Of a stretch of DNA of 64,000 nucleotides, positions 17,286 through 46,944 are shown piece after piece. The position numbers were made by a program, and so were the translations under genes. The notes below the pieces were generated by a model. It was not told the origin of the DNA. It saw nothing but the letters and a program-made list of their open reading frames with translations, and did no database searches. How positions within the stretch are numbered: position 1 is the first letter of the stretch; each line of letters starts with the position of its first letter. The DNA comes from Chamaesiphon sp. (GTDB lineage: Bacteria; Cyanobacteriota; Cyanobacteriia; Cyanobacteriales; Chamaesiphonaceae): assembly GCA_965246715.1 (NCBI GenBank), contig CBDFFH010000005.1, positions 288,001 through 352,000 on the forward strand. Direction: 5' to 3'.

Positions 17286-17368
17286 CCTGAAACCTTTGTG
17301 AGCCAAACCCTAAAATTACCTAAATTTATTCTGAGAACGTTCTCATGCCAATCTCAGCAATTTATCAG
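17286..17368. promoter_or_regulatory. 11-bp-phased CTNAG box array
   Basis: cctgaa 17286, tgtgag 17297, cctaaa 17319, tctgag 17330, tctcat 17341, tctcag 17352, tatcag 17363. Confidence 0.7.
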
Positions 17369-17404
17369 ACTAACATTACATTCGGAATTACTACTAATTA
17401 AATT

Positions 17405-17959
17405 CTATCGATCGCGTCGTTCCAAACGCACATCAACCTCGCGTTCTACATAATCCCATTCCTTGCTCGATCGCATCCGCACGAGTAATTCATCAAATGC
17501 CTGGGTATGTTCTGGCGCAAATTCAAACCAGGTGAGAAAATCAAAGGGTTCGCCGATGTCGCGACAGTGGAGTAGCCGACGGGCAACTCCAGGCAGATAG
17601 TCCATCCCCACAGCGGTGTGATGCGACTCTTCCTCAAAAATCGCCCTTCGTTCGTCTTTCGCCATTTCCCACCATTGGAGCGATTTTTTAATCGGAATCA
17701 GCACCGCACAAATTGCGTCCGATCGATTCAATACGGGCTGAATTGCTTTTAATGCCATAACTTCATCGTGCATGGCATACCGAACATTACTGCTAAAGCC
17801 TTGGAGAATCCACGAACTATCTAATGGTAATTCCTTAATATCATCATTCACTACATCTACTCGTTCTACAAATTCTAGATTAGCACCGAAAATACTTCGC
17901 ACATCTACTACGTGCCATGTGCCTTGGTTGCCACCAATAAACGAATATCTGTTGTTCAT
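17405..17959 (-). CDS. cld: Chlorite dismutase, short (clade 2) type
   Basis: IPIKKS..WW, HHTAVG (proximal His), VARRLLHCRD (catalytic Arg), FDFLTWFEF, EWDYVEREV; 184 aa. Confidence 0.9.
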   Translation of the reverse strand: MNNRYSFIGGNQGTWHVVDVRSIFGANLEFVERVDVVNDDIKELPLDSSWILQGFSSNVRYAMHDEVMALKAIQPVLNRSDAICAVLIPIKKSLQWWEMAKDERRAIFEEESHHTAVGMDYLPGVARRLLHCRDIGEPFDFLTWFEFAPEHTQAFDELLVRMRSSKEWDYVEREVDVRLERRDR

Positions 17960-18124
17960 ATTATTCTACAAATCACTATGCACTCGATCGAGAAGTACAC
18001 AAATAATTCTAAGGTGGTTGAAATTCTCAAAAATTAATAGCAGATTAAAATTTCCGTTTATTTAAATAAGTTTTTGCTGAAAATCCCATCTGACGTTTTT
18101 AGACGATCGCGTTACTTCTGGCGA

Positions 18125-18175
18125 TCTCGATCTCATCCCATTAGCAGCATAACTGCTAATGGGATGAGATCGAGA
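18125..18175. terminator. Perfect 23-bp inverted repeat, 5-nt loop
   Basis: TCTCGATCTCATCCCATTAGCAG-cataa-CTGCTAATGGGATGAGATCGAGA downstream of tetR. Confidence 0.6.
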
Positions 18176-18251
18176 CAGAGATTGATGATTTCGCTCTGGG
18201 CACTAGAGATCGCCTCTCGATCTGTCTACCATTTTGGATCGTGAGTGCCAC

Positions 18252-18812
18252 TTAGACTGTGACTAATCGCTTTAACCGATCGGTGACTTCATCCATCAAC
18301 TCTGGACGCTTTAGGGTCACTGCCAAAATCATCGTGCCTTGCAAAGTCCCGATCGTGTGAACGGCTAATGTTGCAGCATCAGCGAGATCGCCCAATGCTG
18401 ATTCAATCCAATCGAGTAACCGGGTGAAAAATCGCCGCGCCGCTGCTGACACCGCCTCTGGTAAATCCTTCGACTCTGCTCCCAACATACAGCCCAAACA
18501 AATCATCCCGTCATTCTGCACAGCCGCTCGATAGCAGTCGCATAATCGTTGTAAATGTTCTGCTGTTGTCGAGCGGGTGAGATCCACAGCACCCAACGTT
18601 GCTAACAATTTATCGCTATAGCGATCGATTACCGCTGCACCCAGCAATGCCTTCTGCGGAAAATGGTAATGCACACTGGCAGCCTTAATTCCCACATCTG
18701 CTGCCAGATCCCGATAGCTCACGGCTTCAAATCCGCCTCGGCGAATCCGAATCTCCGCCGCCTCAAGTATTTCGATCGCCTTGTCTGAATATTCCGTTGC
18801 ATCATCTTTCAT
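18252..18812 (-). CDS. TetR family regulator, NemR-like, Cys-containing
   Basis: SYRDLAADVGIKAASVHYHFPQK; LCDC and CLGC. Confidence 0.88.
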   Translation of the reverse strand: MKDDATEYSDKAIEILEAAEIRIRRGGFEAVSYRDLAADVGIKAASVHYHFPQKALLGAAVIDRYSDKLLATLGAVDLTRSTTAEHLQRLCDCYRAAVQNDGMICLGCMLGAESKDLPEAVSAAARRFFTRLLDWIESALGDLADAATLAVHTIGTLQGTMILAVTLKRPELMDEVTDRLKRLVTV

Positions 18813-18821
18813 AATTTCAAT

Positions 18822-18890
18822 TATCTAACGTTAGATAGGGGTTGACAACCATCCATGTCTCGCCGCATAAGTTGTCTAACGAACGTTAGA
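18822..18890. promoter_or_regulatory. Two TetR operators flanking a TTGACA -35
   Basis: TATCTAACGTTAGATA (18822-18837), TCTAACG-AA-CGTTAGA (18875-18890), TTGACA 18842-18847. Confidence 0.78.
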
Positions 18891-18922
18891 TAGATAGAAT
18901 CCTTTTAGTTTGGAGAACTGCC

Positions 18923-19537
18923 ATGAAAGTCTACGAATACAAAGCCTTCCCCAACCCTTGGAGAGTCCGCATGGCTCTGGCGGAAAAAGGGTTAACCGAT
19001 CGAGTAGAATTTATCCAAGTCGATCTGCCCCACGGCGAACATAAGCAACCAGCGTTCCTGGCAAAAAATCCGGCGGGTGCTGTGCCCTTGCTGGAACTAG
19101 AGGATGGTACCTGTATTACCGAATGTACCGCCATTACCGAGTATTTCGACCATTTTACGGGCGAGCCAACTCTGACGGGTCAGAATGCCACGGAGCGAGC
19201 CACAATCCATATGATGCAACGGCGAGTAGAAGCAAATTTTTTGGATGCGATCGCCCACTACTTCCACCATGCCACGCCCGGATTGGGCTTTGAAGCTTAT
19301 CAAGTTAAGGAATGGGGCCAAAAGCAGAAGGAACAGGCGATCGCCACCCTGAACGGCTTAGATAAATTATTGGCAACTCAGCCTTATATTGCGGGCGATC
19401 GCTTTACGGTGGCAGATATTACGGCTTTGGCTGGGATTGCGTTTGGTGGCTTTTGTCAAATTACGATTCCCGCAACGGCAACTCATCTAGCAGCTTGGCA
19501 CGATCGAATGCAGCAACGACCGAGTTTTGGTGCGTAA
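18923..19537 (+). CDS. Glutathione S-transferase
   Basis: FPNPWRVRMALAEKG, NPAGAVPLL, RFTVADIT. Confidence 0.92.
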   Translation: MKVYEYKAFPNPWRVRMALAEKGLTDRVEFIQVDLPHGEHKQPAFLAKNPAGAVPLLELEDGTCITECTAITEYFDHFTGEPTLTGQNATERATIHMMQRRVEANFLDAIAHYFHHATPGLGFEAYQVKEWGQKQKEQAIATLNGLDKLLATQPYIAGDRFTVADITALAGIAFGGFCQITIPATATHLAAWHDRMQQRPSFGA

Positions 19538-19561
19538 TTGCCATGATTGATGGGGGAGAGA

Positions 19562-20230
19562 ATGATGGAACTCAATGCTGATTTTACCAAACGAGCGGTG
19601 GTGCATGGGGCGGCGATGCCTTGGCAAGCATCACCCATGCCAGGGGTGGAGCGGCGAATGCTCGATCGTATTGGAGAGGAAGTGGCACGGGCAACAACGA
19701 TCGTCCGCTATGCTCCCAAGAGCCAGTTCTCTCCCCATACCCACGGCGGTGGCGAAGAATTTTTGGTTTTGGCTGGGGTTTTTCAGGATGAATATGGGGA
19801 TTATCCGATGGGCACCTATGTGCGGAATCCACCAACATCCCGTCATACGCCAAGTTCGGTCGGTGGCTGCATCATTCTGGTCAAACTCTGGCAATTCAAC
19901 CCAGACGATCGTACCCAAGTGACGATCGATACCACGAACCAGCCATACATCGCCGATCTGACGCGGCGCGGAGTTACCACGCTGCCGTTGTTTGAAGACG
20001 ATCGAGAAACGGTGCGACTGGAAAAATGGGAGGCGAATGCTTCAATCGATTTACTCGCACCCGATGGGTTAGAAACGTTTGTACTTCAAGGTGGCTTTCG
20101 TGAGAGTGGTGATGTCTTTGAGCTTTACTCTTGGTTGCGATTGCCGCCAGATTCTCGGCTATTGGCGCAATCTGGTGCGGCAGGATGCCAAGTTTGGCTC
20201 AAGCAGTTGAGATCGAGAACTTCCTACTAA
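19562..20230 (+). CDS. ChrR-like cupin domain protein
   Basis: GVERRMLDR, HTHGGGEE, RNPPTSRHTP. Confidence 0.9.
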   Translation: MMELNADFTKRAVVHGAAMPWQASPMPGVERRMLDRIGEEVARATTIVRYAPKSQFSPHTHGGGEEFLVLAGVFQDEYGDYPMGTYVRNPPTSRHTPSSVGGCIILVKLWQFNPDDRTQVTIDTTNQPYIADLTRRGVTTLPLFEDDRETVRLEKWEANASIDLLAPDGLETFVLQGGFRESGDVFELYSWLRLPPDSRLLAQSGAAGCQVWLKQLRSRTSY

Positions 20231-22603: not shown

Positions 22604-23137
22604 TTAGAGTTCGGTGGAATGTCCACTGCCTGGGAATTCATCGGCATGAGAAAGGTCGTACTCAGCCGATCGCGCTCTGCGTTGACTCATTTTCTTGGCA
22701 TACCGATCGTAAGCAATACAGATCCACACCAGTGTCATAAAAAAAATGTTTTTATTAAAACTTTCCGCCGCATTGGGAAACAGGCTCCCAGCAGGGACGA
22801 CACCAAAGGCGAGAATGATACTAAAAGTCATCAGGATGAGTAGCAATCCCGTCCACTCGATCCAGAAATTGAACGCGAATAAGGCTCCTAACACAATTTC
22901 TGCTAATGGTAATAGCCAGCCGTAAGGCACGGCAATAAGCGCAGGCAACGGGCCAATTCCCTGCCAGCCAGCGGGGAATGGCCCCCACAATTGCAATTTT
23001 TGAGTTAGTACGGTTTGATAGAAGCCATCTTTAATACTAAAGTTGAGGTAGTTGGCAATCCCAGAGCAAAAGAAAAACAGTCCGAGTACGACACGATTGA
23101 CAGTGACAGCGGTATGAAGATTGTAGATAGATTTCAT
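22604..23137 (-). CDS. DoxX-like membrane protein
   Basis: RVVLGLFFFCSG...LPLAEIVLG, 4 hydrophobic segments. Confidence 0.7.
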   Translation of the reverse strand: MKSIYNLHTAVTVNRVVLGLFFFCSGIANYLNFSIKDGFYQTVLTQKLQLWGPFPAGWQGIGPLPALIAVPYGWLLPLAEIVLGALFAFNFWIEWTGLLLILMTFSIILAFGVVPAGSLFPNAAESFNKNIFFMTLVWICIAYDRYAKKMSQRRARSAEYDLSHADEFPGSGHSTEL

Positions 23138-23238
23138 AGCAAGATCCTCGTAGAAGAATTTTGGATTGTGGATTAAATAAGGGTGGTAGCTTTGCGTTTA
23201 GACTGAATAAAATCTAGATGCAATAGAAATTGAGATCG

Positions 23239-24660
23239 CTACTTTTTGGGTGCCATCCGATCGAGTAAAGTCGGCATCCCTGTCGAATTCATCTGTTGTT
23301 GAAACTGTGTCGGTTGGGCGGCACGCCAGATCAGTGGCGTGGCGATGAGGACTCCTGCGGCAATGGTTGCCATCCCTGAGAGCCAAGGCGTGCGACCCAA
23401 TCTGTGGGAGTGAAAAGGTTGATGCTGTTGAAAGATTTCGTCAGTCAGCCAATCGGCAGTAACTTTGACGTTACGCCAGATGGTGGGTAGTAATTCGAGA
23501 TAGGTAGCCGTGCGAACTAGATGTCCTGGTTGACCTTTGATAGGGAATTTATCGAACAGGTTGGCAACCCCTTCATTTAGCCCCAATTTCATTAAGGTGC
23601 CCCGTAGATGCACTGTAGCTGTTACCAGGGGTTTGTCCTCCACGATTGCTTGTAAATTGTAGGCGATCGCTTTACCTTGTTGATACGCAACTTGGGCGGT
23701 AGGCGGCTGCGGATCGTCACTATTAGTAGCGCAATCTCCAGCGGCAAATACTTCTGGAAAATCGGGCAATTGCAACGTCGGGATGACGAATAATCGCCCC
23801 TTGAGATCGCGATATTCTGGTTTACTAATTGGTAACTCCATCAATAACGGATGGGGTGAGGTTCCCGCTGTCCAGGCAATCGTGCCAGCTTTGATGGAGT
23901 AGGTGCGCTCGCCCCGTTTGAACTCTACTGCATCAGGATGAATGGCGGCAACTGCGGCATCGAATAGCAATTGAACACCCCGCTGTTTGAGCGCACGGTA
24001 GGCATTAGGGCGCAATTTACTATTGATATCGCCTTTGAGCAGTTCGCCGCTGCGGTTGATGAGCACTACTCTTATTTCATCGACATCGCCGCCGAGATCT
24101 TCGTACCACAGGGGCAACAAATCGCCCAAGGTGCAGGCTAATTCGATCCCCGCAGGCCCCGCGCCAATAATTGCGACTGTCAGTAACGCACACCGTTCCT
24201 GGGGGTCTGGAGTCATGACTGCTTGTCGTAATTGGGCTTGTAACCTTTCGCGTAAAGCGATCGCCTCTGCACCAGATGTCAGCGGCAGTGCGTACTCCGC
24301 CGCACCAGGGGTATCCAGATAAGTTACCTTACTACCCAATGCCAGCACCAAGCGATCGTAAGCATAATCTCGTCCAGAAGCGAGTGCCACCCGCTGGCGG
24401 TGCAAATCGATCGATTTTACAGTGTCTTGCACGAAACTAACGCCCGATTCGGCGAGCAAGTCGGCATAGCGCGGATGAACTTGGCGAGCGTGAAGTTCGC
24501 CGCTGAGTAGTTCGTAGAGGAGTGGCTTGAAACTAAATCGATCTTGTCGATCGATTAGGACGATCGGTTGTTGGTAGTTTTGGCGGCTCAGATGCAAGGC
24601 TGTAAATAGCCCGACAAAACCGCCGCCTAAGATCAGAGTTGGATTGGATTTCTGATTCAT
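23239..24660 (-). CDS. Type II NADH dehydrogenase-like FAD oxidoreductase
   Basis: GGGFVG, GAGPAGIE, WTAG, FAAGD, AQVAYQQG. Confidence 0.9.
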   Translation of the reverse strand: MNQKSNPTLILGGGFVGLFTALHLSRQNYQQPIVLIDRQDRFSFKPLLYELLSGELHARQVHPRYADLLAESGVSFVQDTVKSIDLHRQRVALASGRDYAYDRLVLALGSKVTYLDTPGAAEYALPLTSGAEAIALRERLQAQLRQAVMTPDPQERCALLTVAIIGAGPAGIELACTLGDLLPLWYEDLGGDVDEIRVVLINRSGELLKGDINSKLRPNAYRALKQRGVQLLFDAAVAAIHPDAVEFKRGERTYSIKAGTIAWTAGTSPHPLLMELPISKPEYRDLKGRLFVIPTLQLPDFPEVFAAGDCATNSDDPQPPTAQVAYQQGKAIAYNLQAIVEDKPLVTATVHLRGTLMKLGLNEGVANLFDKFPIKGQPGHLVRTATYLELLPTIWRNVKVTADWLTDEIFQQHQPFHSHRLGRTPWLSGMATIAAGVLIATPLIWRAAQPTQFQQQMNSTGMPTLLDRMAPKK

Positions 24661-24769
24661 AATTTGAGCAGAGGTACAATACCATTTGAATCTGCTGTTA
24701 GTATGACTTGAAAATCCAGGCGATGAATGATTTTGAGCTAAACATTGGCTGAGAAATTCGACCGATTAC

Positions 24770-24808
24770 ACTCATAAACTATTCAGCAATTTCTCATGAG
24801 AAACTCAG
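24770..24808. promoter_or_regulatory. 11-bp-phased box array
   Basis: actcat 24770, attcag 24781, tctcat 24792, actcag 24803. Confidence 0.68.
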
Positions 24809-24977
24809 GCTAGGAGTTTACCATTAATAATCGTAAAAATATTTTGATAAATTAAACAACCCTAGAAATATGGCTTGCAGCTATGAAATTTTACTTGTCC
24901 AAGCATAATACCTCATTCGATCGATATATTTTTCCGACATCAATTATTTACCAACTATTTATTGACTAAAATAAATT

Positions 24978-25442
24978 GTGAGCAAGAATATAATTTTCAA
25001 TCTATTCCGATGGCTGACGATCGGGATTATCATTATTAATTTAATAGCTTATATGGATCTAGCTGAAAGTAGAAATATTTCGTCGCCACAAGAGATTCGC
25101 GCGATCGTCGAGCGAGCTAAAAATGCCTGGGTAGCACGCGATGCCGATGCTCTGGCGCAGTTATTTACACCGGATGCCCAGCTCATCGTCCCCGGTCAAC
25201 GATGGCAGGGACAGGCTAAAATTCGGGAAGAAGTTGCTAAGTTTTCGCGACTGTATACCGATGTCCAAATTACCATCCACCGCACGATCGTCGATGGCAA
25301 TCACGCGGCAGTAGAATGGCATTATGAGGATACCGAAAAAGCTACGGGGAAACGTAGCCAAGCCGATGATGCGATCGTCATTGAGGTCAAAAACGGTCGG
25401 ATTAGTTATTGGCGAGAGTATTTCGATACCAGTGGTAAATAA
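24978..25442 (+). CDS. NTF2/SnoaL-like (SgcJ/EcaC) protein with N-terminal hydrophobic segment
   Basis: DADALAQLF..DA, AAVEW, YWREYFD. Confidence 0.8.
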   Translation: MSKNIIFNLFRWLTIGIIIINLIAYMDLAESRNISSPQEIRAIVERAKNAWVARDADALAQLFTPDAQLIVPGQRWQGQAKIREEVAKFSRLYTDVQITIHRTIVDGNHAAVEWHYEDTEKATGKRSQADDAIVIEVKNGRISYWREYFDTSGK

Positions 25443-25501: not shown

Positions 25502-26020
25502 TTAGGCAGCGATAAATTTCATCGCTACTCCGTTCATACAATATCGCAGTCCAGTGGGTTTCGGGCCATCCTCAAATACATGTCCTAAGTGCCCCCCACA
25601 GCGACGACAATGGACTTCAGTTCGAGTCGCACCGAAGGATGTGTCTACGGAAGTTTTAACTGCATTAGCGATCGGTGCATAGAAACTCGGCCAGCCAGTA
25701 CCGCTCTCAAACTTGGTTTCGGAAACAAACAGCGGCAAGTTACAGCCAGCACAGGCAAATTTACCCGTGCGATGTTCTTGAGTCAGTGAGCTAGTGCCAG
25801 CCCGTTCTGTACCCTCTTTTCGGAGTACCTCGAATTGAGCTGGAGTCAGGATCTTACGCCACTGAGCTTCAGTTTTAGTAACCTCGAATTTACCTAATGT
25901 TTTTGCGTTGGCATAGCCTCTCTGAAATAAAATCGATTCAGATCTTCTGGATGAAAAAAATAGCGTGCTAGCAGCACTAAGTGGTACGAGAGAAGCAAAT
26001 AATAAAGTTCGTCTGTTCAT
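25502..26020 (-). CDS. msrB: Peptide-methionine (R)-S-oxide reductase with twin-arginine-like leader
   Basis: MNRRTLL; GTER, CAGC, GWPSF, CRRCGGHLGHVF, RYCMN. Confidence 0.96.
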   Translation of the reverse strand: MNRRTLLFASLVPLSAASTLFFSSRRSESILFQRGYANAKTLGKFEVTKTEAQWRKILTPAQFEVLRKEGTERAGTSSLTQEHRTGKFACAGCNLPLFVSETKFESGTGWPSFYAPIANAVKTSVDTSFGATRTEVHCRRCGGHLGHVFEDGPKPTGLRYCMNGVAMKFIAA

Positions 26021-26075
26021 TTTTTAATTAGTTAGTTTAGATATCTCTACAATCGGCAGAAGCTAAATTAAAGCT

Positions 26076-26834
26076 CTAACCTTTTTTAATCAGCGTGGGG
26101 AATTGTTGACGGAGTTGGGCTAGTTTTGGCAGATCGAACCTGACGATATAGAATTGAGTAGGATTACGCTCGATAAAATTTTGATGATAATCTTCAGCCG
26201 CATAAAACTCAGCTAAGGGTACTATTTGGGTCGCAATTGGTTCTCTGAAAATGCGAGCTTTGTTCAGCCGATCGATATAATCTTTGGCTACTTGCTGCTG
26301 TTCGGAGCTGGTAAAAAATATTGCCGATCGATACTGGGTACCGCTATCTGGCTCCTGGCGATTTACCTGCGTGGGATCGTGAGCGATGAGAAAGTAAATC
26401 TTCAATAACTGTCCGTAGGAAATTTGAGTAGGATCGTAAGTAATTTTAACCGCCTCTGCATGACCTGTCGTACCAGTGCTGACGAGATCGTAGTTAGCAG
26501 TTACCGCAGTGCCACCAGAGTAACCAGAGACAACATTAGAAACACCTTTAAGATGTTCAAATACTGCTTCTACACCCCAAAAACAGCCGCCAGCGAGGAC
26601 GATCGTTTGTTCTCCTTTGACTTTAGCGGCGGGAATATCAACTGGCGGATCGATTTTCATGCCTGCTAAAGATACTGGAGCCGATTCAGCAGTAGGACTA
26701 GAGAAAATCGTGTGCGACATAATGCCAAAGGCAACTGCGATTAGTGACACGATCGAGAGGCTAAATACGAATCTATAGTTATGTGACATCATAGGCGAAG
26801 TGGTAAGTTTAGACGGGGTAAATTTAGCTTTCAT
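26076..26834 (-). CDS. msrA: Peptide-methionine (S)-S-oxide reductase with N-terminal signal/TM
   Basis: GGCFWG, GHAE, HDPTQ, QYRSAIF, AEDYHQ. Confidence 0.96.
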   Translation of the reverse strand: MKAKFTPSKLTTSPMMSHNYRFVFSLSIVSLIAVAFGIMSHTIFSSPTAESAPVSLAGMKIDPPVDIPAAKVKGEQTIVLAGGCFWGVEAVFEHLKGVSNVVSGYSGGTAVTANYDLVSTGTTGHAEAVKITYDPTQISYGQLLKIYFLIAHDPTQVNRQEPDSGTQYRSAIFFTSSEQQQVAKDYIDRLNKARIFREPIATQIVPLAEFYAAEDYHQNFIERNPTQFYIVRFDLPKLAQLRQQFPTLIKKG

Positions 26835-27041
26835 TTGCGATTTTCCTAATATTTGGATGGCTCTATTATTTTCTAGAGGACAGTAGAAATCTGCTCTAAA
26901 CCCATAACAACCGATCGATTAGATCTACGAGCAGAACGTTCGATCGGATTCATTTATGTAGCGATTTATGGTCAGATAAATACTGTGAAGCTGACAACAT
27001 TAGCTTAGGAATTTAATTATCTCCGCTCGCACTAGAATTTA

Positions 27042-27113
27042 TCTGAGAAAAGACCGAGAACATTCTAAGTTTTTTCTGAGAGTTTTCTTATGGCATTCTC
27101 AGCAATTTCTCAG
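27042..27113. promoter_or_regulatory. 11-bp-phased CTNAG box array upstream of msrA-msrB
   Basis: tctgag 27042, accgag 27053, tctaag 27064, tctgag 27075, tcttat 27086, tctcag 27097, tctcag 27108. Confidence 0.75.
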
Positions 27114-27283
27114 ATTGTGTCGGTCTAACCTCTGGGCACAAGATTGTCAACAAGCGAGCGAGTTGTGGTTGCTGAGACCATCGCCAGAGTCAAATCGACA
27201 CGACTATAAGTAATCCATTGCACAGCACTAACTTTAAATAAACGATATAGTTCGAGCGGTCTATTATTGCCAATTACTGTGAT

Positions 27284-33612: not shown

Positions 33613-34314
33613 CTAAATTCCGCCAAACCATTCATAACCTTGTTCTTCCCAGTAACCTTTGCCACCTTTAGGAATTTGACTGACAAAACTAACCTTTGTC
33701 ACCCATTTTGATAGTTTGTAGCCCAATTTAATCGGTGAAGCTAGGCGTAATGGTGCGCCATTGTCGGCAGGAAGTGGTTGTCCATTCATTTGATAAGCTA
33801 GCAGGGTTTGCGGGTGAATGGCAGAAGCTAGATCCCAACTTTCGGTATATTTATCAGCCGATTGAAATAAGACATATTTAGCATTATCTTTCGGTTGAAC
33901 CATTTGAGCCAAATCGCGCAATCGGAAGCCACCCCACTGGACGATCGCCGCCCAACCTTCGACGCAAACATGTTGCATAATTATCGACGTTGGCGGAATT
34001 TGTTTTAAGGCTGTTAAGTTCAGTTCCATCGGAAATTTCACTTCGCCATCGACAGTCAATCGATACTTATCGGGGTCGATTTCAGGAGTACCCTCATAAC
34101 TATTGAGCAGGAGAGCTTTGGGATCGATCGCACTTTTGGAAAATTCAGGGATGAGCAGTTGGGGTTTGACGAGTAATTCCCCAAATGATTGATTCAATGG
34201 TTCGGACAAGTCGCCGACTTTAGCGGTGAATTCGTTGCTACAACTATTAAGTAAATAACCGATACTTGACATTCCCATTAGTTGAATGGCTTGGCGACGA
34301 GTGAGCTGATTCAT
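33613..34314 (-). CDS. Molybdopterin-dependent oxidoreductase (MsrP/YedY/sulfite-oxidase family), Tat signal
   Basis: LTRRQAIQ; HVCVEGW; GAPLRL; KLGYKLSKWV; GYWE. Confidence 0.88.
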   Translation of the reverse strand: MNQLTRRQAIQLMGMSSIGYLLNSCSNEFTAKVGDLSEPLNQSFGELLVKPQLLIPEFSKSAIDPKALLLNSYEGTPEIDPDKYRLTVDGEVKFPMELNLTALKQIPPTSIIMQHVCVEGWAAIVQWGGFRLRDLAQMVQPKDNAKYVLFQSADKYTESWDLASAIHPQTLLAYQMNGQPLPADNGAPLRLASPIKLGYKLSKWVTKVSFVSQIPKGGKGYWEEQGYEWFGGI

Positions 34315-34348
34315 GGGTTAGTGAATAGTGAATAGTGGATAGAATATT

Positions 34349-34404
34349 GTAGGGTGTGTTATCGCGTTCGCGTAGCGTCTGCCTTTGCAGAAGCGTAACG
34401 CACC
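34349..34404 (+). repeat. GTAG-type REP-like palindrome containing a nested 24-nt small dispersed repeat (34367-34390)
   Basis: GTAGGGTGTGTTATCGCG[TTCGCGTAGCGTCTGCCTTTGCAG]AAGCGTAACGCACC. Confidence 0.7.
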
Positions 34405-34440
34405 GAAGAGAATAGATCGCTATCTGTTAAATATAATTTT

Positions 34441-35040
34441 CTAGGGTTGAAACATCGAGCGAGTCAACCTCAATCCGCCAGCCCTAATCCCCATGGTGAT
34501 ATGCACTAAGATAAATAATAGAGAAATTGGCACAGTCAAAAAATGTACCGTGCGTAAAACTTGCCAATTGATAAATAACCCAGATAGCCAATGAAATTGA
34601 GCGGGCTTATACATTGCCAATCCTGAGAAGATGGCTAGGATCAGCACAGGGATAATTCCGGTATAAATCAAGCGATGCCAAGCATAGGTACGTCGCTTAG
34701 GATTTTGGGCGACCTTCAATGCTTTGAGATCTTGTTCGGAGACAAATTTTCTTTTCCATCGCTGGGTGAGAAAGATATAAATCCCATAAATTAGTAAGGT
34801 AAAGGCAAACACCCACATGGTGGTAAAATGCCAATTTCTACCGCCAGCTAACCAACCGCCTAAAGTCGCCCACTTCGGAAAAGGCCAACCATCTTTACCG
34901 CCAAATACTGGCGTAGCATTGTAGATTTGTAAGCCACTACCAATCATGATAAATAGACTGACAATAATTAAACCGTGGAGGATTTTAACAAAGTTTGTTT
35001 GTGGTGGAACGGGTGGAGATTTTTTAGCTTGTTTAGTCAT
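34441..35040 (-). CDS. Membrane cytochrome b (Ni-hydrogenase cyt b / YdhU-like), partner of the molybdoenzyme
   Basis: 4 TM with His ligands; SGLQIYNA, GGWLAGGRNWHF, RTVHF. Confidence 0.88.
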   Translation of the reverse strand: MTKQAKKSPPVPPQTNFVKILHGLIIVSLFIMIGSGLQIYNATPVFGGKDGWPFPKWATLGGWLAGGRNWHFTTMWVFAFTLLIYGIYIFLTQRWKRKFVSEQDLKALKVAQNPKRRTYAWHRLIYTGIIPVLILAIFSGLAMYKPAQFHWLSGLFINWQVLRTVHFLTVPISLLFILVHITMGIRAGGLRLTRSMFQP

Positions 35041-35071
35041 GGTAAATATCGATGATTGATGTTGCTCTAAT

Positions 35072-35764
35072 TTACAAAGGAAGTTTGGGAAACAAAGGAG
35101 CTAGCCATAATTGAAGTTCCACATCCCAACCGAGTAAGATGGCGATCGCGGTTCCTGCCATCAGTATCCCCCCGATCCGTTGAAATGCTCCGGCGTAGGG
35201 CAACAATCGCCGCGAAGAATTACTGAGGTGACGACTACTATAAGCGATCGCCAACAGCGGAATTCCGGCTCCTAAGCCGTAGACAGTTAATAATGCCAGC
35301 GCACCCAAAACCTCATGTTTGACGGCTGCTAGGACTAAAATACTGCCCAATGCTGGCCCCGCACAGGGTGTCCAGAGTAGTCCCAATTGAGTACCGATCC
35401 AGAATTCACTCCATAAGCCTGGTGTCTTTGGTTCCCAAGATTTACCGAATTGTAAAGAGCTGCTCAATCGGTAGCTCAAGGTAGGGAAAATTGCTAATAC
35501 CCCCAAGCCAAATAGTAAGCCTACCGCCACATTCCGCAACAAGTTGGCAAAACCGACAAACCAGGAACTCGCCACTCCTAACAGGCTACCGATTAGCGCG
35601 AAACCGCTCACTAATCCCAATACCAACATGACAGGGCCGAGTCGATGCGATTTGAACGATCGACCCAATACTAATGGTATAACTGGCAAGACGCAGGGGG
35701 ACAGAATAGTTAACAATCCGCCACCGAGAGCGAAACCGAAGGTGAGGGGTGAAATTTCATTCAT
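35072..35764 (-). CDS. ccdA: CcdA/DsbD-like transmembrane electron transporter
   Basis: LSPCVLP and WTPCAGP. Confidence 0.9.
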   Translation of the reverse strand: MNEISPLTFGFALGGGLLTILSPCVLPVIPLVLGRSFKSHRLGPVMLVLGLVSGFALIGSLLGVASSWFVGFANLLRNVAVGLLFGLGVLAIFPTLSYRLSSSLQFGKSWEPKTPGLWSEFWIGTQLGLLWTPCAGPALGSILVLAAVKHEVLGALALLTVYGLGAGIPLLAIAYSSRHLSNSSRRLLPYAGAFQRIGGILMAGTAIAILLGWDVELQLWLAPLFPKLPL

Positions 35765-36333
35765 GCTGCCCGCCCTAATAATTGCCGAATCTTCGCTTCA
35801 GTTTCGTCATAAGCTCCCTCGCCAATATGGTCGTAACGAATGATGCCCTGCCGATCTGCTAAAAATAAATGCGGCCAATATTCGTTCTTAAATGCTTTCC
35901 AAGTTTGGAAGTCATTATCTACGCCGACAGGGTAAGTAATCCCGTGTTTGGCGATCGCGCGGCGAATATTTTTACTATCCCGCTCGAACGGAAATTCTGG
36001 CGTATGAATCCCGATCGTCTGTAAGCCTTTAGCAGCATACTTTTTATGCCAACTGGTAACGTAGGGTAATGTGCGTTGACAATTAATGCAGCCGAGCGTC
36101 CAAATTTGGACTAAAACAACTTTACCGAGTAAATCTTTGGTCGTTAGTGGTGATGAATTCATCCATTCACTAATGCCTTGAAATTCTGGTAATTGGTTCG
36201 CAGAGGTGGCTATGTCTCCAGGTGTGACTATCGGTGATGTGGATGGACGGCTGGCGAAGCTAGCGGCTTGCCAACCGAGTGTTCCCAATCCCAGATAAGT
36301 TAAAAATTTCCGACGGGGTAATGATAAAGGCAT
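35761..36333 (-). CDS. DipZ-like thioredoxin, Tat signal (paralog of 16157-16783)
   Basis: LPRRKFL; WTLGCINC; GIHTPEF. Confidence 0.9.
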   Translation of the reverse strand: MPLSLPRRKFLTYLGLGTLGWQAASFASRPSTSPIVTPGDIATSANQLPEFQGISEWMNSSPLTTKDLLGKVVLVQIWTLGCINCQRTLPYVTSWHKKYAAKGLQTIGIHTPEFPFERDSKNIRRAIAKHGITYPVGVDNDFQTWKAFKNEYWPHLFLADRQGIIRYDHIGEGAYDETEAKIRQLLGRAA

Positions 36334-36492
36334 AATTTCAATTAGTTAGGTTGATATCTTTAATACAGGCTCGATCGACAATTGGATTTAGTTCAAGCTA
36401 TAAAATCTACAAACTTTGATAGTTTTTTAATTAAATCTACTTATCAATTGCTGTTTGTATAATCTAAAAATAATGTGTGAAAAGATCGCTGC

Positions 36493-37554
36493 TTAGATTC
36501 CTTTAAATCCCATTCTTGCTTCGACATCATGTTTGCGCTCGATCGAGTTAACTCGCTTATTTTCTAGCCGAGCGGTACGGATCTTAATCCCTACTTGACC
36601 TAAAACTAGACCGATTAAAATGATAATCCCCCCGATATATTGAGCGCGAGTCGGTACTTCATCCAGAATGAAATAGGCAGCAAGAATGCCCACGACTGGC
36701 GTAAAGGCACCAACTATCGAGACAGTGGCGATCGAGGAATGCCGCAGCCCAGCATTCCACAATGATTGCCCCACAACGACAATAATCGTGCCGTACAAGA
36801 GCATCCATTGCCACAGAAATGGCGATAACACGCCCATAAAATGGTTGGGGCCATACATCCACAAAGCCAAGCAGAAAAAGACGATCGTGCCCAGTCCCGT
36901 GCGCCCAGTATTGTAAACGCCTAGCGGTACTCGCGCTAACCACTTTTTGGTCGCAATTGTCGCGATCGATAAAAAGACCGCAGCAAGAGTTGCTACTAGT
37001 TCACCCGATCCAGGATGAGAACCAGATGCTGGCATCATTTGAGCTTTAGCAGGCTGAAGGATGACGGTGAGGACGACACCGACAAAGGCCACGCTCGATC
37101 CGATGACTTCCCAACGGTTGACTTTTTCCCGTAACAGCCAGATCGACAAGAACAGGGTCAATGGCGGTTCCAAGCGACCGATTAGTAATACAGTCGTCAC
37201 CGAAGTTAGCGATAGTGCTTCAAAGATGAAACTCGGCCCTAATGCTGTTGCTAAGGTGGCGACAAGTAGCAATCCCAACCATTCCTGCGGCGATATTTGG
37301 CTCAGGGTCTGACGGTTCAACTGATCTCGATTGAGCGGGACTAGCACCAATAGCGCGCAGAGATTGCCGACAAACAGGACATTACAGTAAGAAATCGGAT
37401 TGTGCCCGCCGACGAAATGCTGGGCACCAATTTCGGTAATCTTTCGCGTAACGGCACTAGCAGAGCCGAAGATCGGGATCGCCAACCACAGATAGATGTG
37501 TCCGGGGATGCGCGAGGTTAAGTTCGTCAGTTGTTGGGGGAATGAGGGCATCAT
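36493..37554 (-). CDS. EamA/DMT family transporter
   Basis: ~10 TM in two EamA repeats; LLREK, ILDE. Confidence 0.88.
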   Translation of the reverse strand: MMPSFPQQLTNLTSRIPGHIYLWLAIPIFGSASAVTRKITEIGAQHFVGGHNPISYCNVLFVGNLCALLVLVPLNRDQLNRQTLSQISPQEWLGLLLVATLATALGPSFIFEALSLTSVTTVLLIGRLEPPLTLFLSIWLLREKVNRWEVIGSSVAFVGVVLTVILQPAKAQMMPASGSHPGSGELVATLAAVFLSIATIATKKWLARVPLGVYNTGRTGLGTIVFFCLALWMYGPNHFMGVLSPFLWQWMLLYGTIIVVVGQSLWNAGLRHSSIATVSIVGAFTPVVGILAAYFILDEVPTRAQYIGGIIILIGLVLGQVGIKIRTARLENKRVNSIERKHDVEARMGFKGI

Positions 37555-37604: not shown

Positions 37605-37725
37605 ATCGCTAACCGATCTGAATTGCCAGCATACCCAGATTCTAAACTTACAATCTGAGTTTCTCCTGAGAAAGCGATTAATAATTAGGTTTCAAAATTT
37701 ATCCTAATTTCTCAGTCGATATTTA

Positions 37726-38742
37726 CAGCACTTCCGTTAGTCATGAGGTACGCCAAAAGATAGTAAAGATACATTCAATAATGAAAGCATTTTCAGTCGA
37801 TCTTCGAGAAAAAATAGTTGCGGCACATCTCGATCGCCATCACTCAATTAGAGCGGTTGCTAGCATATTTACTGTTAGCAAAAGCTTTGTCCAAAAGCTA
37901 GTCAGACAACATAAGCTTGAAGGAAACTTACAGCCTAAAAAGCCAGGTAAACCACGATTAAGTTACCTGACAAATGCTGAAGTAGAGTTAAGAGAATTAG
38001 TTGCCGAACATCCCGATGCAACTTTGGCTGAACTGTGTGAATTTTTCGCTGATAAAACTGGCAATTGGGTTGGTCGAAGTGCCATGAGTGACGCATTACG
38101 AAAATTAGGCTTAAGTCGTAAAAAAAAACGGAAAGGAGCACCCAAGCTACAACAGAAAGAGTCCTAAATTTGAGAGTAGATTATTGGGAATCGGTTAAAA
38201 ATATCGACGTGAAAAACTTAGTGTTTTTAGATGAAACTGGTATTCTGCTTGGTTTAGCCAGAACTCATGCTCGGTCACAGCGGGGAACAAGAGCATATAC
38301 TTTTACCCCATTCTATCGAGGTGCAAAAGTTACCGCTATCGGCGCAATTAGCATTGAAAAAGTTGTAGCATTGATGACAATGGATAATTCAATGGATAGT
38401 AGAGCTTTTGAATTATTTGTTAAGGATTTTCTAGTGCCGGAGCTATGGCCAGGTGCCGTTGTCGTAATGGATAATTTATCCTCACACAAATTCGATTCCA
38501 TTATCCCAATGATTGAAGCTGTCGGTGCTTCTGTTATTTTCCTCTCCCCATACTCACCTGATTTTAACCCAATTGAGTTATGGTGGTCACAGCTCAAGTC
38601 TTTTTTACGAATGTTTTCACCTGCTACGACAATTATGGTGGATAGAATAATTTCACTTGCAATTGGGTTAATCGATCCTCAACATCTCAGAAATTGGTTT
38701 ACTAATTGCTGCTATTGTACCTCGTAACAACCGGAAGTGCCG
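37726..38742 (+). mobile_element. IS630-family insertion sequence (ORFs 37781-38167 and to 38727, -1 frameshift at A9, 38120-38128)
   Basis: TA duplication (37724-25 / 38743-44); IRs CAGCACTTCCG..GAGGTAC; DETG, MDNL, SPDFNPIE. Confidence 0.94.
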
Positions 38743-38943
38743 TATCGCTCGATCGTTCATGAGCAAAAGAGAACAGACATACCGATCGCCGTTCAGTGAG
38801 ATTAGTTACGATCGAGATTTAGTATTTCTCAGCAAAAATTAATCTTGCTATTAGCGTCGTCTCATAACGCGATCGAGTCTTTCGATTACAGTGAAAGAAT
38901 AACTATAAAACTGCATGAAGTAACGGTTCCCCCAAATTTTCCA

Positions 38944-40365
38944 ATGAAACCCTTCGCTAAACTCCAGGAGAGATTCCATCAAATCAAGCAGCGGCATCTC
39001 GACCCAGCTTCACTCCAGTTTCGACTCACTCTCGAAGTATCGCTGTTGTCAATCCTCGGGTTGAGTAGCGTTGCCGCTTGGACGAGTTGGAAAATGCAGC
39101 AACTTTTAATTACCACGCATACTCAGCAAGTCGAGTACATTGCCAATCGGTTTCCGCGCGATGTCGAACTTTATAGCGGTATGCTGCCAGTTAACGAGGG
39201 ACTACAAAAAACAATCGATAATGTCTCGGTACCAGGATTAGCAATCTGGGTCAAAAATCCCGATGGCCAACAGATTCTGGCACAGTCGAGTAAAGTGAGT
39301 GCCGAATTGATGTCGATCGCCCAGATGCCACTCCAGCCGCAGGTTTATCGAGTTGGAGATCGCTATCTAATTTTGTATCGAGGGGATCTAACGGCCAAAA
39401 ATCAGCCGCTGGGTAAGGTGTACATGTCACAGGATGTCACTACCGAGCAATACCAACTAATTACCGCCATTCAAGGTCTCACTGCCGTTTGTATTTTAGC
39501 AACCCTCTTTACTATCCTGGCGATCGCCATCCGGATTCGCCGTTCGCTCCAACCTTTGCAGGAGATGAGTCAGATGGCGGGGGCGATTTCTGCCGCAGAT
39601 CTAAATAACGCGCAATTGCAATTGAATAACGCTCCAACTGAAGTTAAGGAGTTAGCCCAAGCTTTTAATCTCATGCTGTCGCGGTTGGGGGATACTTGGG
39701 AGCAACAACGGCAGTTTATCGGTAATATTTCCCATGAGTTACGCACGCCATTAACAGTGGTATCGGGCTATCTTCAGAGCTTATTACGTCGGGGTAATAA
39801 CCTCAATGATTACCAACGCGAAGCCCTCGAAACAGCCGGAGCCGAAGCAGATCGTACCATCAATCTACTGCAAGATTTACTAGATTTGGCACGAGCGGAT
39901 AGTGGTTATACTCGTTATCATTTAGAACCGTTATTGTTGAACGAATTAGTGACAGAAGTAGTCGATATGACCGCAAGATTTGGCGAGCGATCGATTCAAG
40001 TTGTCGCAACAGAAAATGTTGAAGCGATCGTCGATCGCGAGCGATTGAAACAGGTATTAATCAATCTCTTAGATAATGCGATTAAATATTCAACAGCAAC
40101 ACAACCGATCGATTTGATTATCGAACAACACGATAAACAGGCAATTATTCGCATTCGCGATCGCGGAATTGGGATTCCGCTGCAAGATCGGGGGCGGATT
40201 TTTGAACGCTTTTATCGAGTCGATAAAGATCGCGCCCGCACGACTGGCGGCTATGGATTGGGATTGGCGATCGTCAAAACACTCGTAGAAGGGATGGGTG
40301 GTAAAATTATGGTGCGTTCGACAGTAGGTGAAGGGAGCGAGTTTACGATCGCCTTCCCTAAATGA
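38944..40365 (+). CDS. Membrane HAMP sensor histidine kinase (OmpR-partner type)
   Basis: 2 TM, HAMP, SHELRTPL, NLLDNAIKY, FERFYRVD, GLGLAI. Confidence 0.93.
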   Translation: MKPFAKLQERFHQIKQRHLDPASLQFRLTLEVSLLSILGLSSVAAWTSWKMQQLLITTHTQQVEYIANRFPRDVELYSGMLPVNEGLQKTIDNVSVPGLAIWVKNPDGQQILAQSSKVSAELMSIAQMPLQPQVYRVGDRYLILYRGDLTAKNQPLGKVYMSQDVTTEQYQLITAIQGLTAVCILATLFTILAIAIRIRRSLQPLQEMSQMAGAISAADLNNAQLQLNNAPTEVKELAQAFNLMLSRLGDTWEQQRQFIGNISHELRTPLTVVSGYLQSLLRRGNNLNDYQREALETAGAEADRTINLLQDLLDLARADSGYTRYHLEPLLLNELVTEVVDMTARFGERSIQVVATENVEAIVDRERLKQVLINLLDNAIKYSTATQPIDLIIEQHDKQAIIRIRDRGIGIPLQDRGRIFERFYRVDKDRARTTGGYGLGLAIVKTLVEGMGGKIMVRSTVGEGSEFTIAFPK

Positions 40366-40425
40366 AACCTCAATGGTGGGAAAATACTAATTCTTTATAA
40401 TCGATCGTTTTGGAGTAGAGAAACA

Positions 40426-44019: not shown

Positions 44020-44056
44020 GGCTTTCCTTGGTTTGCTTTAGCATGAAACAATTACC

Positions 44057-44112
44057 TTGACATTTTATCATAACAGTTGTTATGATGTCTGAAAAACATA
44101 ACAACTGTTGTG
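44057..44112. promoter_or_regulatory. TTGACA plus two TetR operators CATAACA-NN-TGTT(A/G)TG
   Basis: ATCATAACAGTTGTTATGAT 44067-44086; CATAACAACTGTTGTG 44097-44112. Confidence 0.78.
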
Positions 44113-44130
44113 ATAAGAACGGGATTTAAT

Positions 44131-44607: not shown

Positions 44608-44692
44608 TACGGTGGGTATTATTTTAGTCTCCATCCAATCGCTCCTACTGCCAATTCCTGCCACGATCGCAATTATCACATTTACCAACATA

Positions 44693-45367
44693 CTACTCCC
44701 GCAATGAATAACCGACCCCCCGTGCAGTATGAATCAATCGCTTTTCATTATCCTGTTCTAACTTTAATCGCAGATAGCGAACGTAGACCTCAATAATATT
44801 TGAGTCTCCCAGAAAGTCATACCCCCAAATATTTTCGAGAATTTGGTCTCTGGTAAATACCTGACGCGGATGAGTCATTAAGTATTGCAGAAGATCGAAT
44901 TCTTTAGCGGTTAAGTCGATCGATCTTTGCCCCCGATGGACTTCACGAGTGCGGCGATTTAAGATTAAATCTTCAAACTGCAATAGATCGACATCCGTTT
45001 CCTGCGTGCGCCGCAAATGAGCGCGAATTCTAGCTAATAGCTCCTCAATACTAAACGGTTTAACCAAATAATCATCGGCTCCCGCATCTAAACCTGTCAC
45101 GCGATCGCCGACTTCATCTCTAGCAGTTAGCAAAATCACCGGAATCTTAATTCCAGTAGATCGCATCCTCCGACAGAGTTCGACACCAGTTAAACCGGGC
45201 AACATCCAATCCAAAATCGCTAAATCTGGCTCCGATTCACGTACCAAAGATAGTCCAGTCATGCCGTCGTGTGCCACGCTGACGCGATAGCCTTCACTCC
45301 CCAATTCCAGTTCGATAAAGCGGGCGAGTTTGACTTCATCTTCAACTAATAGGATATGTGCCATCAT
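44693..45367 (-). CDS. OmpR/PhoB family response regulator
   Basis: LLVEDE, LDWMLP, GADDYLVKPF, winged helix with HTARGVGY. Confidence 0.95.
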   Translation of the reverse strand: MMAHILLVEDEVKLARFIELELGSEGYRVSVAHDGMTGLSLVRESEPDLAILDWMLPGLTGVELCRRMRSTGIKIPVILLTARDEVGDRVTGLDAGADDYLVKPFSIEELLARIRAHLRRTQETDVDLLQFEDLILNRRTREVHRGQRSIDLTAKEFDLLQYLMTHPRQVFTRDQILENIWGYDFLGDSNIIEVYVRYLRLKLEQDNEKRLIHTARGVGYSLRE

Positions 45368-45421
45368 CTGTGTTTCCTTCATCTCGCGTGTGCCCATCAC
45401 TCATTATCTGTGGTCGGACGG

Positions 45422-46156
45422 TTATTTAGGCATGTTTAGAGCTGGAGCTGACTGCACGGTACAAAGCTTTTTGTCGCACTGCTGCTCGTAGAGCTTTTCC
45501 ACGTAGGGTTTTTGCCAAGCCAGAGGAACTTCGAGTAACGCCTGGGTGCCAGTAAAAGCTTGCCCGATAAACAGTAGCAACGCCAACGAATTTAAACTAA
45601 TGTGAATATTCCGCCAGCGATTGGTGCGATCCTGATAAATTTCTCTGACGATCGCCAGGGAAAAAATCATTAAGATCGCCGCAGTAATCCCATAATAGTA
45701 ATGGGAAATATACCACTGTTCTGTTTTGCGATAAACACCATCCTGACTGCCGATAACGATGAGCGCAACGCTGGTAAGGATGGCAAATACTACCCGCCAC
45801 AGTCTAGTTTTAGCACGATAAAGTAATACTAGCGACCCGATCGCTGCTGCAAATACAAAACTAATTAAGATGACCTGAAATGGATTGTGTGCCCATAATT
45901 TCTTATCGACAATATTACCAAATACATCATTGGCAAATGCTAATAAAACGATACCCACTACCGCACCTGTCAACCACCGACCTAATTGAGCATGTTCTGG
46001 CCCCGCGCTGGGTGGAATGGCACTTTTCTTGCCTGTGGACACTTGTAACCGCCGCTGACGAGTTTGGAGCGCACGATTCATCACCATGCCAAGTAACGGA
46101 AATACTACAGTGATAGCAATGAGTGGATGTAACAATAAGATCGTATCTCTATTCAT
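45422..46156 (-). CDS. His-containing membrane protein (DUF4079-like)
   Basis: LLHP, EHAQLG, SHYY, NIH in TM helices. Confidence 0.7.
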   Translation of the reverse strand: MNRDTILLLHPLIAITVVFPLLGMVMNRALQTRQRRLQVSTGKKSAIPPSAGPEHAQLGRWLTGAVVGIVLLAFANDVFGNIVDKKLWAHNPFQVILISFVFAAAIGSLVLLYRAKTRLWRVVFAILTSVALIVIGSQDGVYRKTEQWYISHYYYGITAAILMIFSLAIVREIYQDRTNRWRNIHISLNSLALLLFIGQAFTGTQALLEVPLAWQKPYVEKLYEQQCDKKLCTVQSAPALNMPK

Positions 46157-46418
46157 GAAAACCTCCCGATCTTGCTTAATATTTAGGGGTAAATAATTCT
46201 TGTAAGTCGATCTAAAATAAGCACAACCCAACCCAAAAAATTTATGTTGTTTAATAATTCCTATGTTTAATACCGATCGACGACAGTAGGCTCTACCAAC
46301 ACCAATGCATCAAATTTAAGCAAAGTTAAAGGGGTCAAGAATCGAGATCTGTTCTTTCGCCTCGATCCCCTCAAACTAAAGCATTCATCCTCAGAACGGC
46401 ACCTAGCAAGTTAGAATA

Positions 46419-46784
46419 TTACTTAACTTCACTTGCTAAAAATGCAGTTATTCTACCTTTTTTGACCGCAACTACCACATCGTAAGTAGCACAATAGGAG
46501 AAGGTGACATTATTGGCTTTGTTGTATAGATTGACGACCATACCTGCGCCACCAGGTTGAACTCCCAGCGGTTCGAGATCGCCATAGAAGAACCGACGTA
46601 GCTGGTCGCCACCACCGATCTGACCCTTGTTTTTAGTAATTAAACTGATTTTTTCTTGGACGGAGGGGCCTTCAGCCGCACTGGCAACTATCCCGATCGA
46701 GGGCGCGAATGTCCCAGGTGTAATATGACCGACAGTAACTAAGCCCAACATTGCAACACTTGTAACCAAAGAAGTTAATTTCAT
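46419..46784 (-). CDS. Hypothetical secreted protein
   Basis: N-terminal signal-like segment; 121 aa. Confidence 0.7.
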   Translation of the reverse strand: MKLTSLVTSVAMLGLVTVGHITPGTFAPSIGIVASAAEGPSVQEKISLITKNKGQIGGGDQLRRFFYGDLEPLGVQPGGAGMVVNLYNKANNVTFSYCATYDVVVAVKKGRITAFLASEVK

Positions 46785-46861
46785 AGAATTTCTGGTGAAT
46801 ATCGATAGAATGTTTTTCAGCAGAACCCAATTGGCTCACTGAATCAACTATCGCAGCTACC

Positions 46862-46944
46862 ACTGAAAGCACTCTGAACTTAGCCGATCGATTTCCTGAA
46901 TTTATGCTGAAATTCTCCTTAGTTAAATCTCAGCAATTTCTCAG
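46862..46944. promoter_or_regulatory. 11-bp-phased CTNAG box array
   Basis: actgaa 46862, tctgaa 46873, cctgaa 46895, gctgaa 46906, ccttag 46917, tctcag 46928, tctcag 46939. Confidence 0.75.

Follow-up and report, generated by a model that had tools for sequence, protein, structure and literature searches.

An eight-slot box array as a probable operator of an NblR-like response regulator in Chamaesiphon

Why do several intergenic regions within one cyanobacterial gene cluster carry long arrays of short boxes at an 11-bp period, and which protein reads them? The arrays lie in a 64,000-nt stretch of a Chamaesiphon sp. genome (contig CBDFFH010000005.1, positions 288,001 to 352,000; in the following called the window). 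An earlier note had described four of them and ascribed them to the OmpR/PhoB-family response regulator encoded at 44693-45367. We found that the arrays are real and, from comparison across species, that the long ones share one conserved promoter layout. With a probability of roughly 0.7, they would be an operator through which this regulator, probably phosphorylated by the HAMP histidine kinase 38944-40365, would activate genes for the repair of oxidised envelope proteins.

The surrounding cluster (window 15-47 kb) has a redox character, with genes for a Met-rich lipoprotein, redoxins, a chlorite-dismutase-like protein, ndh-2, msrA/msrB, ccdA-like, cytochrome b561-like and MsrP-like proteins, eamA, the HAMP kinase, the OmpR-family regulator, a DUF4079 protein and a small secreted-looking protein. 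The named organisms closest to the genes of this genome are Chamaesiphon, and GCGATCGC, a cyanobacterial mark, occurs 2803 times in it.

Position, period and layout of the arrays

The putative regulatory sites and the genes most directly linked to them are as follows; bit scores refer to the matrix described below.

46863..46945, minus strand: eight-slot operator with slot 1 at 46945, heading the genes for secreted protein, DUF4079 protein and response regulator; 70.1 bits, the top site of the genome
46847..46852, minus strand: -10-like hexamer GATAGT (inferred -10), 10 nt past slot 8 of the 46945 operator
27032..27114, minus strand: eight-slot operator 5' of msrA-msrB, slot 8 degenerate; 54.9 bits; -10-like GATAAT at 27016-27021
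24727..24809, no strand: array of eight slots, two-sided, flanked by ndh-2 (minus) and the SnoaL gene (plus); 10 nt past either end stands a -10-like hexamer, GATTTT at 24711-24716 (minus) and TACCAT at 24819-24824 (plus)
17287..17369, minus strand: eight-slot operator 5' of the Met-rich lipoprotein gene; 57.6 bits; -10-like GATACT at 17271-17276; kept in L124 and L042
37655..37671, minus strand: forward two-box site for eamA, followed by 10 nt and TAGAAT at 37639-37644
38827..38843, plus strand: two-box site 5' of the kinase gene, TCTCAG and a weak second box; kept in L043, L060, L068 and L076, with the same pair beside the regulator in six other loci
46419..46784, minus strand: secreted-looking 121-aa protein without Pfam/NCBIfam match, whose gene has the closest link to the operator
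45422..46156, minus strand: DUF4079 membrane protein (Pfam PF13301)
44693..45367, minus strand: OmpR/PhoB-family response regulator, NblR-like (probably Rre28-type), 224 aa; E9/D10/D53/T81/K103 intact; likely array reader
38944..40365, plus strand: HAMP histidine kinase, likely cognate; periplasmic Met51, Met80, Met123 and Met128

All four arrays lie where the earlier note had placed them, each in an 11-bp register. In the 6.1-Mb genome, five clusters with at least five of eight boxes in phase occur at a period of 11 and none at periods of 8, 9, 10, 12, 13 or 14; with at least four of eight boxes, there are eight clusters at period 11 vs zero to three at the other periods. The proposed enrichment over shuffled intergenic DNA was also found: when each of the four gaps was shuffled 5000 times with dinucleotides preserved, no shuffle attained the in-phase box counts of the real sequence (4, 5, 5 and 7). 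Because the box set, eight 5-mers, was picked after the arrays had been seen, the period comparison and the conservation across species are the fairer tests.

Read on the plus strand, the three long arrays end in TCTCAGCAATTT(C/A)TCAG, as described before. Their boxes are in phase, and the layout needed amending in two respects: each long array comprises eight slots, with slots 1-3 degenerate, and a -10-like hexamer had been overlooked. On the gene strand, this hexamer, GATA(A/C/G)T, follows exactly 10 nt after slot 8 in all three. The array reported at 24770-24808 is correctly located, reaches to ~24727 and is two-sided; it scores only 19.1 bits with the main matrix. Its register is identical in L063, and the reversed block is shifted by one base in L170 and in contig C4 of this genome (G000).

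Of the weaker boxes noticed on either side of an IS630 element, two pairs, 37654/37665 next to eamA and 38827/38838 next to the kinase gene, are conserved in four further intergenic regions between these genes; the single boxes 37710 and 38860 are not. The gap between the two pairs varies in these four genomes. The flanking of IS630 looks incidental, and the element was rejected as source or organiser of the boxes: with its sequence removed computationally, the boxes do not share a single register, and neither of the conserved pairs is inside it.

For the comparison across species, we took the 80 best among 264 loci with a relative of the secreted protein. The full layout lies upstream of the gene in 72 of these 80; one locus was too short, two were variants under the seed score and five had none. 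Judged by their titles, the operator loci belong to Chamaesiphon, Leptolyngbyaceae, Nostocaceae, Pseudanabaena and others. In a non-redundant set of 36 promoters (<75% identity), reversed boxes occupy slot 1 in 36/36, slot 2 in 35/36 and slot 3 in 27/36, and forward boxes occupy slot 5 in 33/36, slot 7 in 35/36, slot 8 in 34/36 and slot 4 in 10/36; slot 6 is essentially empty. Slots 1-2 and 7-8 are conserved same-orientation pairs, and slots 3-6 hold one good box per pair. Column identity is 84% within boxes vs 41% elsewhere. When each end pair was located separately, 73 loci could be scored; the two pairs are 66 bp apart in 71 of them, and 67 and 44 bp apart in the other two. Six loci were too weak to score.

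The hexamer is conserved as well. Its positions 2 (A) and 6 (T) are invariant in all 36 promoters, giving an xAxxxT motif at a fixed 10-nt distance from the proximal pair, and a conserved -35 is absent. In counts that include the known arrays and are supportive only, xAxxxT follows gene-facing intergenic box pairs at +10 in 14 of 77 cases and at +21 in 15 of 77, with 3-12 at other offsets and flat controls; in other genomes it does so in 20/70 (+10) and 15/70 (+21).

As judged from these alignments, this is one conserved promoter of ~100 bp. It is divided into eight slots spaced at 11 bp; the boxes in slots 1-3 are reversed, those in slots 5, 7 and 8 point forward, and the -10-like hexamer stands 10 nt further on. 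Sites of the OmpR/PhoB type, as previously proposed, are the best reading of such short boxes at an 11-bp period in same-orientation pairs, together with a linked regulator whose phospho-site is intact. The arrangement differs from PhoB-type sites, where all dimers are in tandem, in that slots 1-3 are inverted. Seven to eight units had been called unusual; array length as such has precedents, and the rigid inverted layout is the unusual part. The box and its geometry resemble motifs ascribed to other systems, namely the MprA box TCTCAG, the M. tuberculosis PhoP box TCACAGC, the ArlR box TTTTCTCAT and the pho box placed 10 bp before the -10.

The layout also recurs in front of different genes. 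Four genomes, all of one genus, have another copy of the operator before Met-rich lipoprotein and/or cytochrome b-MsrP-like genes. Outside the boxes, the lipoprotein operator of this genus is 72-78% identical to the secreted-protein operator of the same genomes and ~41% identical to the lipoprotein operator of the window, pointing to movement of the cassette.

Regulon and candidate reader

A matrix was built from the 36 non-redundant secreted-protein promoters, all from other genomes. It yielded five sites of 54.9-70.1 bits in the genome, at window 46945, 17369 and 27114 and at G000 C13:13597 and C5:271527; the next-ranked site reached 20.1 bits, and the tops of two shuffled genomes were 15.0 and 14.3. 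Since the training set holds no orthologs of the lipoprotein and msrA promoters, the whole layout is common to different genes. The candidate targets comprise MsrA/B, MsrP/Q-like proteins, CcdA/thioredoxin and the Met-rich lipoprotein.

At G000 C13:13597-15800, a second operator stands together with secreted protein, DUF4079 protein and regulator genes, the regulator copy being frameshifted after ~150 codons. All-forward arrays of two to five boxes occur outside the window at G000 C5:246402-247020, 259099, 260195, 266480, 267412 and 283637-283670, likewise followed after 10 nt by a -10-like hexamer. They precede a second Met-rich peptide-msrB-msrA set and SDR, glycogen-debranching-like and glucosidase-like genes, the last conserved in L126, and may be read by the window's regulator or by its paralog.

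Clade membership, defined as best match to the regulator at E<=1e-85, was counted by hand and applies to 87 of 401 genomes of the phylum. The strict operator pattern occurs in 24 of the 401 (control matches, 0), all 24 within the 87 that carry the clade; within family f7 it occurs in 20 of 30 genomes with the clade vs none of 16 without. Related genomes do not count as independent cases, and the strict pattern was derived in part from the same species; these tallies therefore overstate the association, and we claim no p-value. A relaxed pattern, applied to 80 genomes without strict match, gave two matches (a real one in G241 and one with three mismatches) vs three in the control, and thus no hidden full operators in the searched set. 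Among 40 operator loci that extend over 15 kb or more, 26 contain the regulator or its kinase, and the order of the genes differs between them. Where the clade member is absent, so is the operator in three genomes: G315 and G297 have kept the secreted-protein operon and have only the paralogous regulator type, and G299 has the secreted-protein gene and no clade member. The earlier choice of the 44693-45367 regulator as reader is thereby upheld as probable. Autoregulation, also suggested at that time, agrees with the position of the 46863-46945 operator at the head of the regulator's own operon.

Which kind of regulator is this? Its best NCBIfam model is the NblR model NF045914, below the cut-off of 300: the window's regulator scores 285 bits, other clade members 283-288, the paralog 254 and the genome's NblR 323. 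The latter (G000 C42:52695-53351, L252) has almost the recognition helix of the window's regulator. NblR may bind TCTCAG-like pairs; because it shares the recognition helix, the box is a lead for its site too. A quick, weakly supported regulator tree was used solely to set the paralog type and NblR apart. The regulator has the traits of Rre28 (Sll0396), being NblR-like, 224 aa long and with Cys65 (figures from PMC4361706). Judged by length, Cys65 and NblR likeness, it is probably of the Rre28 type. Its closest solved relatives include M. tuberculosis PhoP.

The paralogous kinase-regulator pair lies at G000 C5:224856-232042. Its members are 49% and 63% identical to those of the window, and it adjoins thioredoxin reductase, ccdA-like, thioredoxin and cupin-like genes. 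The pair TCTCAGCAAAAACTCAT, which resembles the site at the window's kinase, precedes a conserved 322-aa gene beside the regulator in L164, L169, L176, L177, L178 and L181 (family f7). Box pairs on both strands occur between a cupin-like gene and a small NPCA-repeat lipoprotein near the regulator pair in L153 and L165.

Proposed mechanism, signal and alternatives

In the mechanism that we favour, each TCTCAG/TTTCAG box would take up one winged-helix domain. On slots 7-8, two protomers in head-to-tail arrangement would cover the -35 region, 10 nt before the weak -10 (GAT(G/A)CT); by analogy with PhoP complexes, they would place RNA polymerase there (PMC11825685). Like promoters of the PhoB type, this one would be silent in the absence of its regulator. 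A second dimer would sit on slots 1-2 in the opposite direction. In slots 3-6, each pair joins a good box to a poor one and would be filled only through cooperative extension, which fits the cooperative bridging of weak repeats by Streptomyces PhoP (PMC2275107). With up to four dimers needed, the response would be steep, and the sites at the regulator's own operon, the kinase and eamA would add positive feedback. We infer cooperative loading, already suggested in the earlier note, from the fixed spacing and the weak inner slots, and binding, activation, signal and the choice among paralogs from sequence features.

Several observations weigh against this picture. The regulator does not require the layout, because 63 of the 87 clade genomes are without the strict pattern. 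Its recognition helix is nearly the same in the 63% identical paralog and in NblR, so that the attribution to 44693-45367 is probable and not certain, and G010 has a full operator in a genome where only the paralogous regulator type was found. Slot 8 of the msrA operator at 27032 is degenerate. In the genus with two operators the second is a recent copy of the first, hence the shared layout partly reflects descent. Met-repair genes are nearby in only 13 of the 40 long operator loci, the MsrP-like protein of the window reaches 103.8 bits with the MsrP model against a cut-off of 207, and in a non-redundant set of 19 kinases Met51, Met80, Met123 and Met128 are kept in 16, 14, 9 and 12.

The signal is the least certain part. 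Periplasmic methionine oxidation by reactive chlorine or oxygen species is a lead, to which we give a little less than an even chance. In two distant lineages, genes of the Met-rich lipoprotein, thioredoxin/ccdA, msr or MsrP/Q-like kind follow the operator. In its Met-containing repeats and MsrP/Q-like context, the Met-rich lipoprotein resembles the MXKDX/MrpX Met-rich peptides, but it matches no family model at E<=0.01. In the kinase, methionine makes up 4.3% of the periplasmic vs 2.1% of the cytoplasmic residues. Of 44 kinases of the window type, 41, 39, 34 and 37 keep Met51, Met80, Met123 and Met128, respectively; of 13 paralogous-type kinases, 11, 2, 0 and 0 do so. In an alignment of 36 kinases, Met51 and Met80 never vary. 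The msr genes are common near chlorite dismutase (PMC9751292), and a similar gene set appears in hypochlorite responses under HprSR (10.1101/2021.09.09.459708) and extracytoplasmic function (ECF) sigma factors (PMC8315932). Alternatively, the same activating operator could answer to a metal or to general envelope or desiccation stress, the Met-repair genes being one recruited module, a possibility that we take seriously if tentatively. It would suit core targets that consist of proteins of unknown function and eamA, the 27 of 40 long loci without nearby Met-repair genes, the simpler forward arrays before sugar-metabolism-like genes elsewhere on the contig, and the kinase's best NCBIfam match, a heavy-metal sensor subfamily below cut-off. 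The full operators before Met-rich lipoprotein or msr genes, the methionines of the kinase and the chlorite-dismutase-like gene within the cluster speak for methionine oxidation instead.

How far do the eight slots act together? A bolder version of the favoured mechanism, which we consider doubtful, would have them form one fixed nucleoprotein complex of four phosphorylated dimers in two opposed blocks, with an invariable 66-bp geometry, as a steep switch for an envelope methionine-oxidation response sensed by the kinase methionines; the cassette would recruit operons, and the same box code would show what Rre28 and NblR bind. Under another, unlikely reading, operator and regulator are the same and the reversed half only serves a divergent gene, ancestrally eamA, making two independent back-to-back promoters and no four-dimer complex. 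For this speak the divergent position of eamA and the secreted-protein gene in 26 of 72 operator loci, the two-sided ndh-2/SnoaL array and a mirror -10-like hexamer 10 nt past slot 1 in 4 of 15 non-redundant divergent cases vs 1 of 21 others, although the latter difference is weak (Fisher p 0.14). However, slots 1-2 are best conserved also without divergent eamA, including at 17369 and 46945, which no divergent gene follows, and the 66-bp distance is rigid whereas the gap in true eamA/kinase back-to-back pairs varies. The joint complex is favoured because the inverted block is kept at a fixed distance where no divergent gene exists and the mirror hexamer is so infrequent; the block may have originated as a divergent eamA site.

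The near-identical helix of three proteins also raises the question whether the main reader is another regulator, the paralog (G000 C5:229934-230605) or NblR (G000 C42). The case of G010, the operator of L124 adjoining a paralog-type pair and Pseudanabaena operator loci adjoining a regulator with a changed helix residue would be compatible with this, yet many genomes with NblR-level matches have no operator, G315 and G297 combine paralog and target gene without one, and the window's regulator type stands beside most operators; we consider another main reader quite improbable. Even less credit is due to repression by promoter coating as in ArcA, whose long 11-bp arrays repress and can have either orientation (PMC4173790). 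A consensus-like promoter does overlap the 17369 array (2 found vs 0.7 expected), but the arrays stop a fixed 10 nt before the conserved weak -10-like hexamer and leave it uncovered, a conserved -35 is missing and a fixed position is what activators need. Finally, slots 1-2 and 7-8 are dyad-symmetric and the 36 promoters have a mean folding z of -1.25 (lowest -4.6), as might be expected of an RNA hairpin, a cruciform or a repeat element. We regard a non-protein site of this kind, or chance, as extremely improbable: complementarity is confined to the box cores and absent between them, so that hairpin and cruciform were rejected, the search of the window for known RNA families (Rfam) gave no match, and the shuffle and period controls exclude chance.

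Related systems and neighbouring features

Six-to-eight-box OmpR/PhoB operators are known. M. tuberculosis PhoP activates as 2, 4 or 6 protomers, with a proximal head-to-tail dimer on the -35 and further dimers upstream, up to six PhoP on one promoter (PMC11825685). The present arrays share with it the 11-bp repeats and, in the proposed mechanism, would share head-to-tail dimers, a proximal pair over the -35 and several dimers per promoter. Its dimers are described as tandem; the arrays of the window differ in the inverted distal block, in eight slots that are base-fixed across families, and in regulator and targets. Streptomyces PhoP operators have up to six repeats, with eight reported at one promoter, weak repeats are bridged by cooperative binding and the phoD operator lies on both strands; in contrast to the single conserved cassette reused here at several genes, their layouts vary by promoter (PMC2275107). 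ArcA sites with extra repeats are likewise known (PMC4173790). HprSR (YedVW/HypVW)-msrPQ of E. coli, in which a two-component system with conserved periplasmic methionines in its sensor controls envelope methionine-sulfoxide repair, would be similar (10.1101/2021.09.09.459708). Unlike HprR, for whose equivalog model it scores 185 against a cut-off of 353, the window's regulator is not an ortholog; the target set here is wider and sensing is predicted. In MrpX-YedYZ and BcrXQP, under ECF sigma control, a Met-rich repeat peptide adjoins MsrP/Q-like genes (PMC8315932). The regulator also differs from cyanobacterial NblR, the true one (323 bits) being encoded elsewhere in the genome.

No description of the operator, of its rigid inverted layout or of the regulon was found in a literature search over listings and abstract openings, mainly of open texts. 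A 2026 preprint that lists inferred Rre28 targets calls the downstream function of Rre28 undefined and a priority (10.64898/2026.06.09.731130). For a regulator clade that is widespread among cyanobacteria, our analysis offers candidates for the binding site, the promoter geometry, the cognate kinase and the targets. With its rigid spacing, inverted block and proposed four dimers, the layout is a test case for higher-order OmpR/PhoB activation complexes, and the compact, portable promoter could become an inducible part in cyanobacteria.

The small secreted-looking protein has no match in Pfam/NCBIfam. None of its 1102 homologs has a name, 28 cluster representatives gave no function either, and the atlas clusters that contain it are cyanobacterial only, with no family assigned. 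A Foldseek search with its model (predicted local distance difference test score, pLDDT, 76.9) gave no match; the top structural Z scores, 5.8 and 5.7, were BLIP/OsmE-like chains and lie under a meaningful level. A complex prediction with the kinase sensor domain scored 0.00 and was used neither for nor against an interaction. One copy of the protein is on a plasmid (one record of 72,556, NZ_CP083583.1:1165208-1165582).

The remaining features are:

37724..38744, plus strand: IS630-type element at TA between the eamA and kinase promoters, with inverted ends, TA duplication, HTH_28 and DDE_3; outside the operator
33613..37554, minus strand: eamA, redoxin, ccdA-like, cytochrome b561-like and MsrP-like molybdoprotein genes, co-transcription inferred
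25502..26834, minus strand: msrA and msrB with N-terminal export-like extensions (TIGR00401 and TIGR00357 over cut-off)
24978..25442, plus strand: SnoaL-like protein
22604..24660, minus strand: ndh-2-like flavoprotein and MauE/DoxX-like membrane protein
16917..17201, minus strand: lipoprotein of 94 aa, its repeats containing Met (6 Met among the final 60 residues), without family match
15398..16783, minus strand: redoxin and folE genes 3' of the lipoprotein gene

The chlorite-dismutase-family protein is encoded at window 17405-17959, directly upstream of the lipoprotein operator, in a neighbourhood that is alike in L042, L044 and L124. At window 27284-28835, an AraC-family gene is cut short at the start of an IS1-type element, and the next gene, DJ-1/PfpI, also looks truncated at its start. 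The TetR-GST-cupin (window 18252-20230) and kinase-kinase (38944-42528) blocks are duplicated at G000 C55:28549-33438 in changed order.

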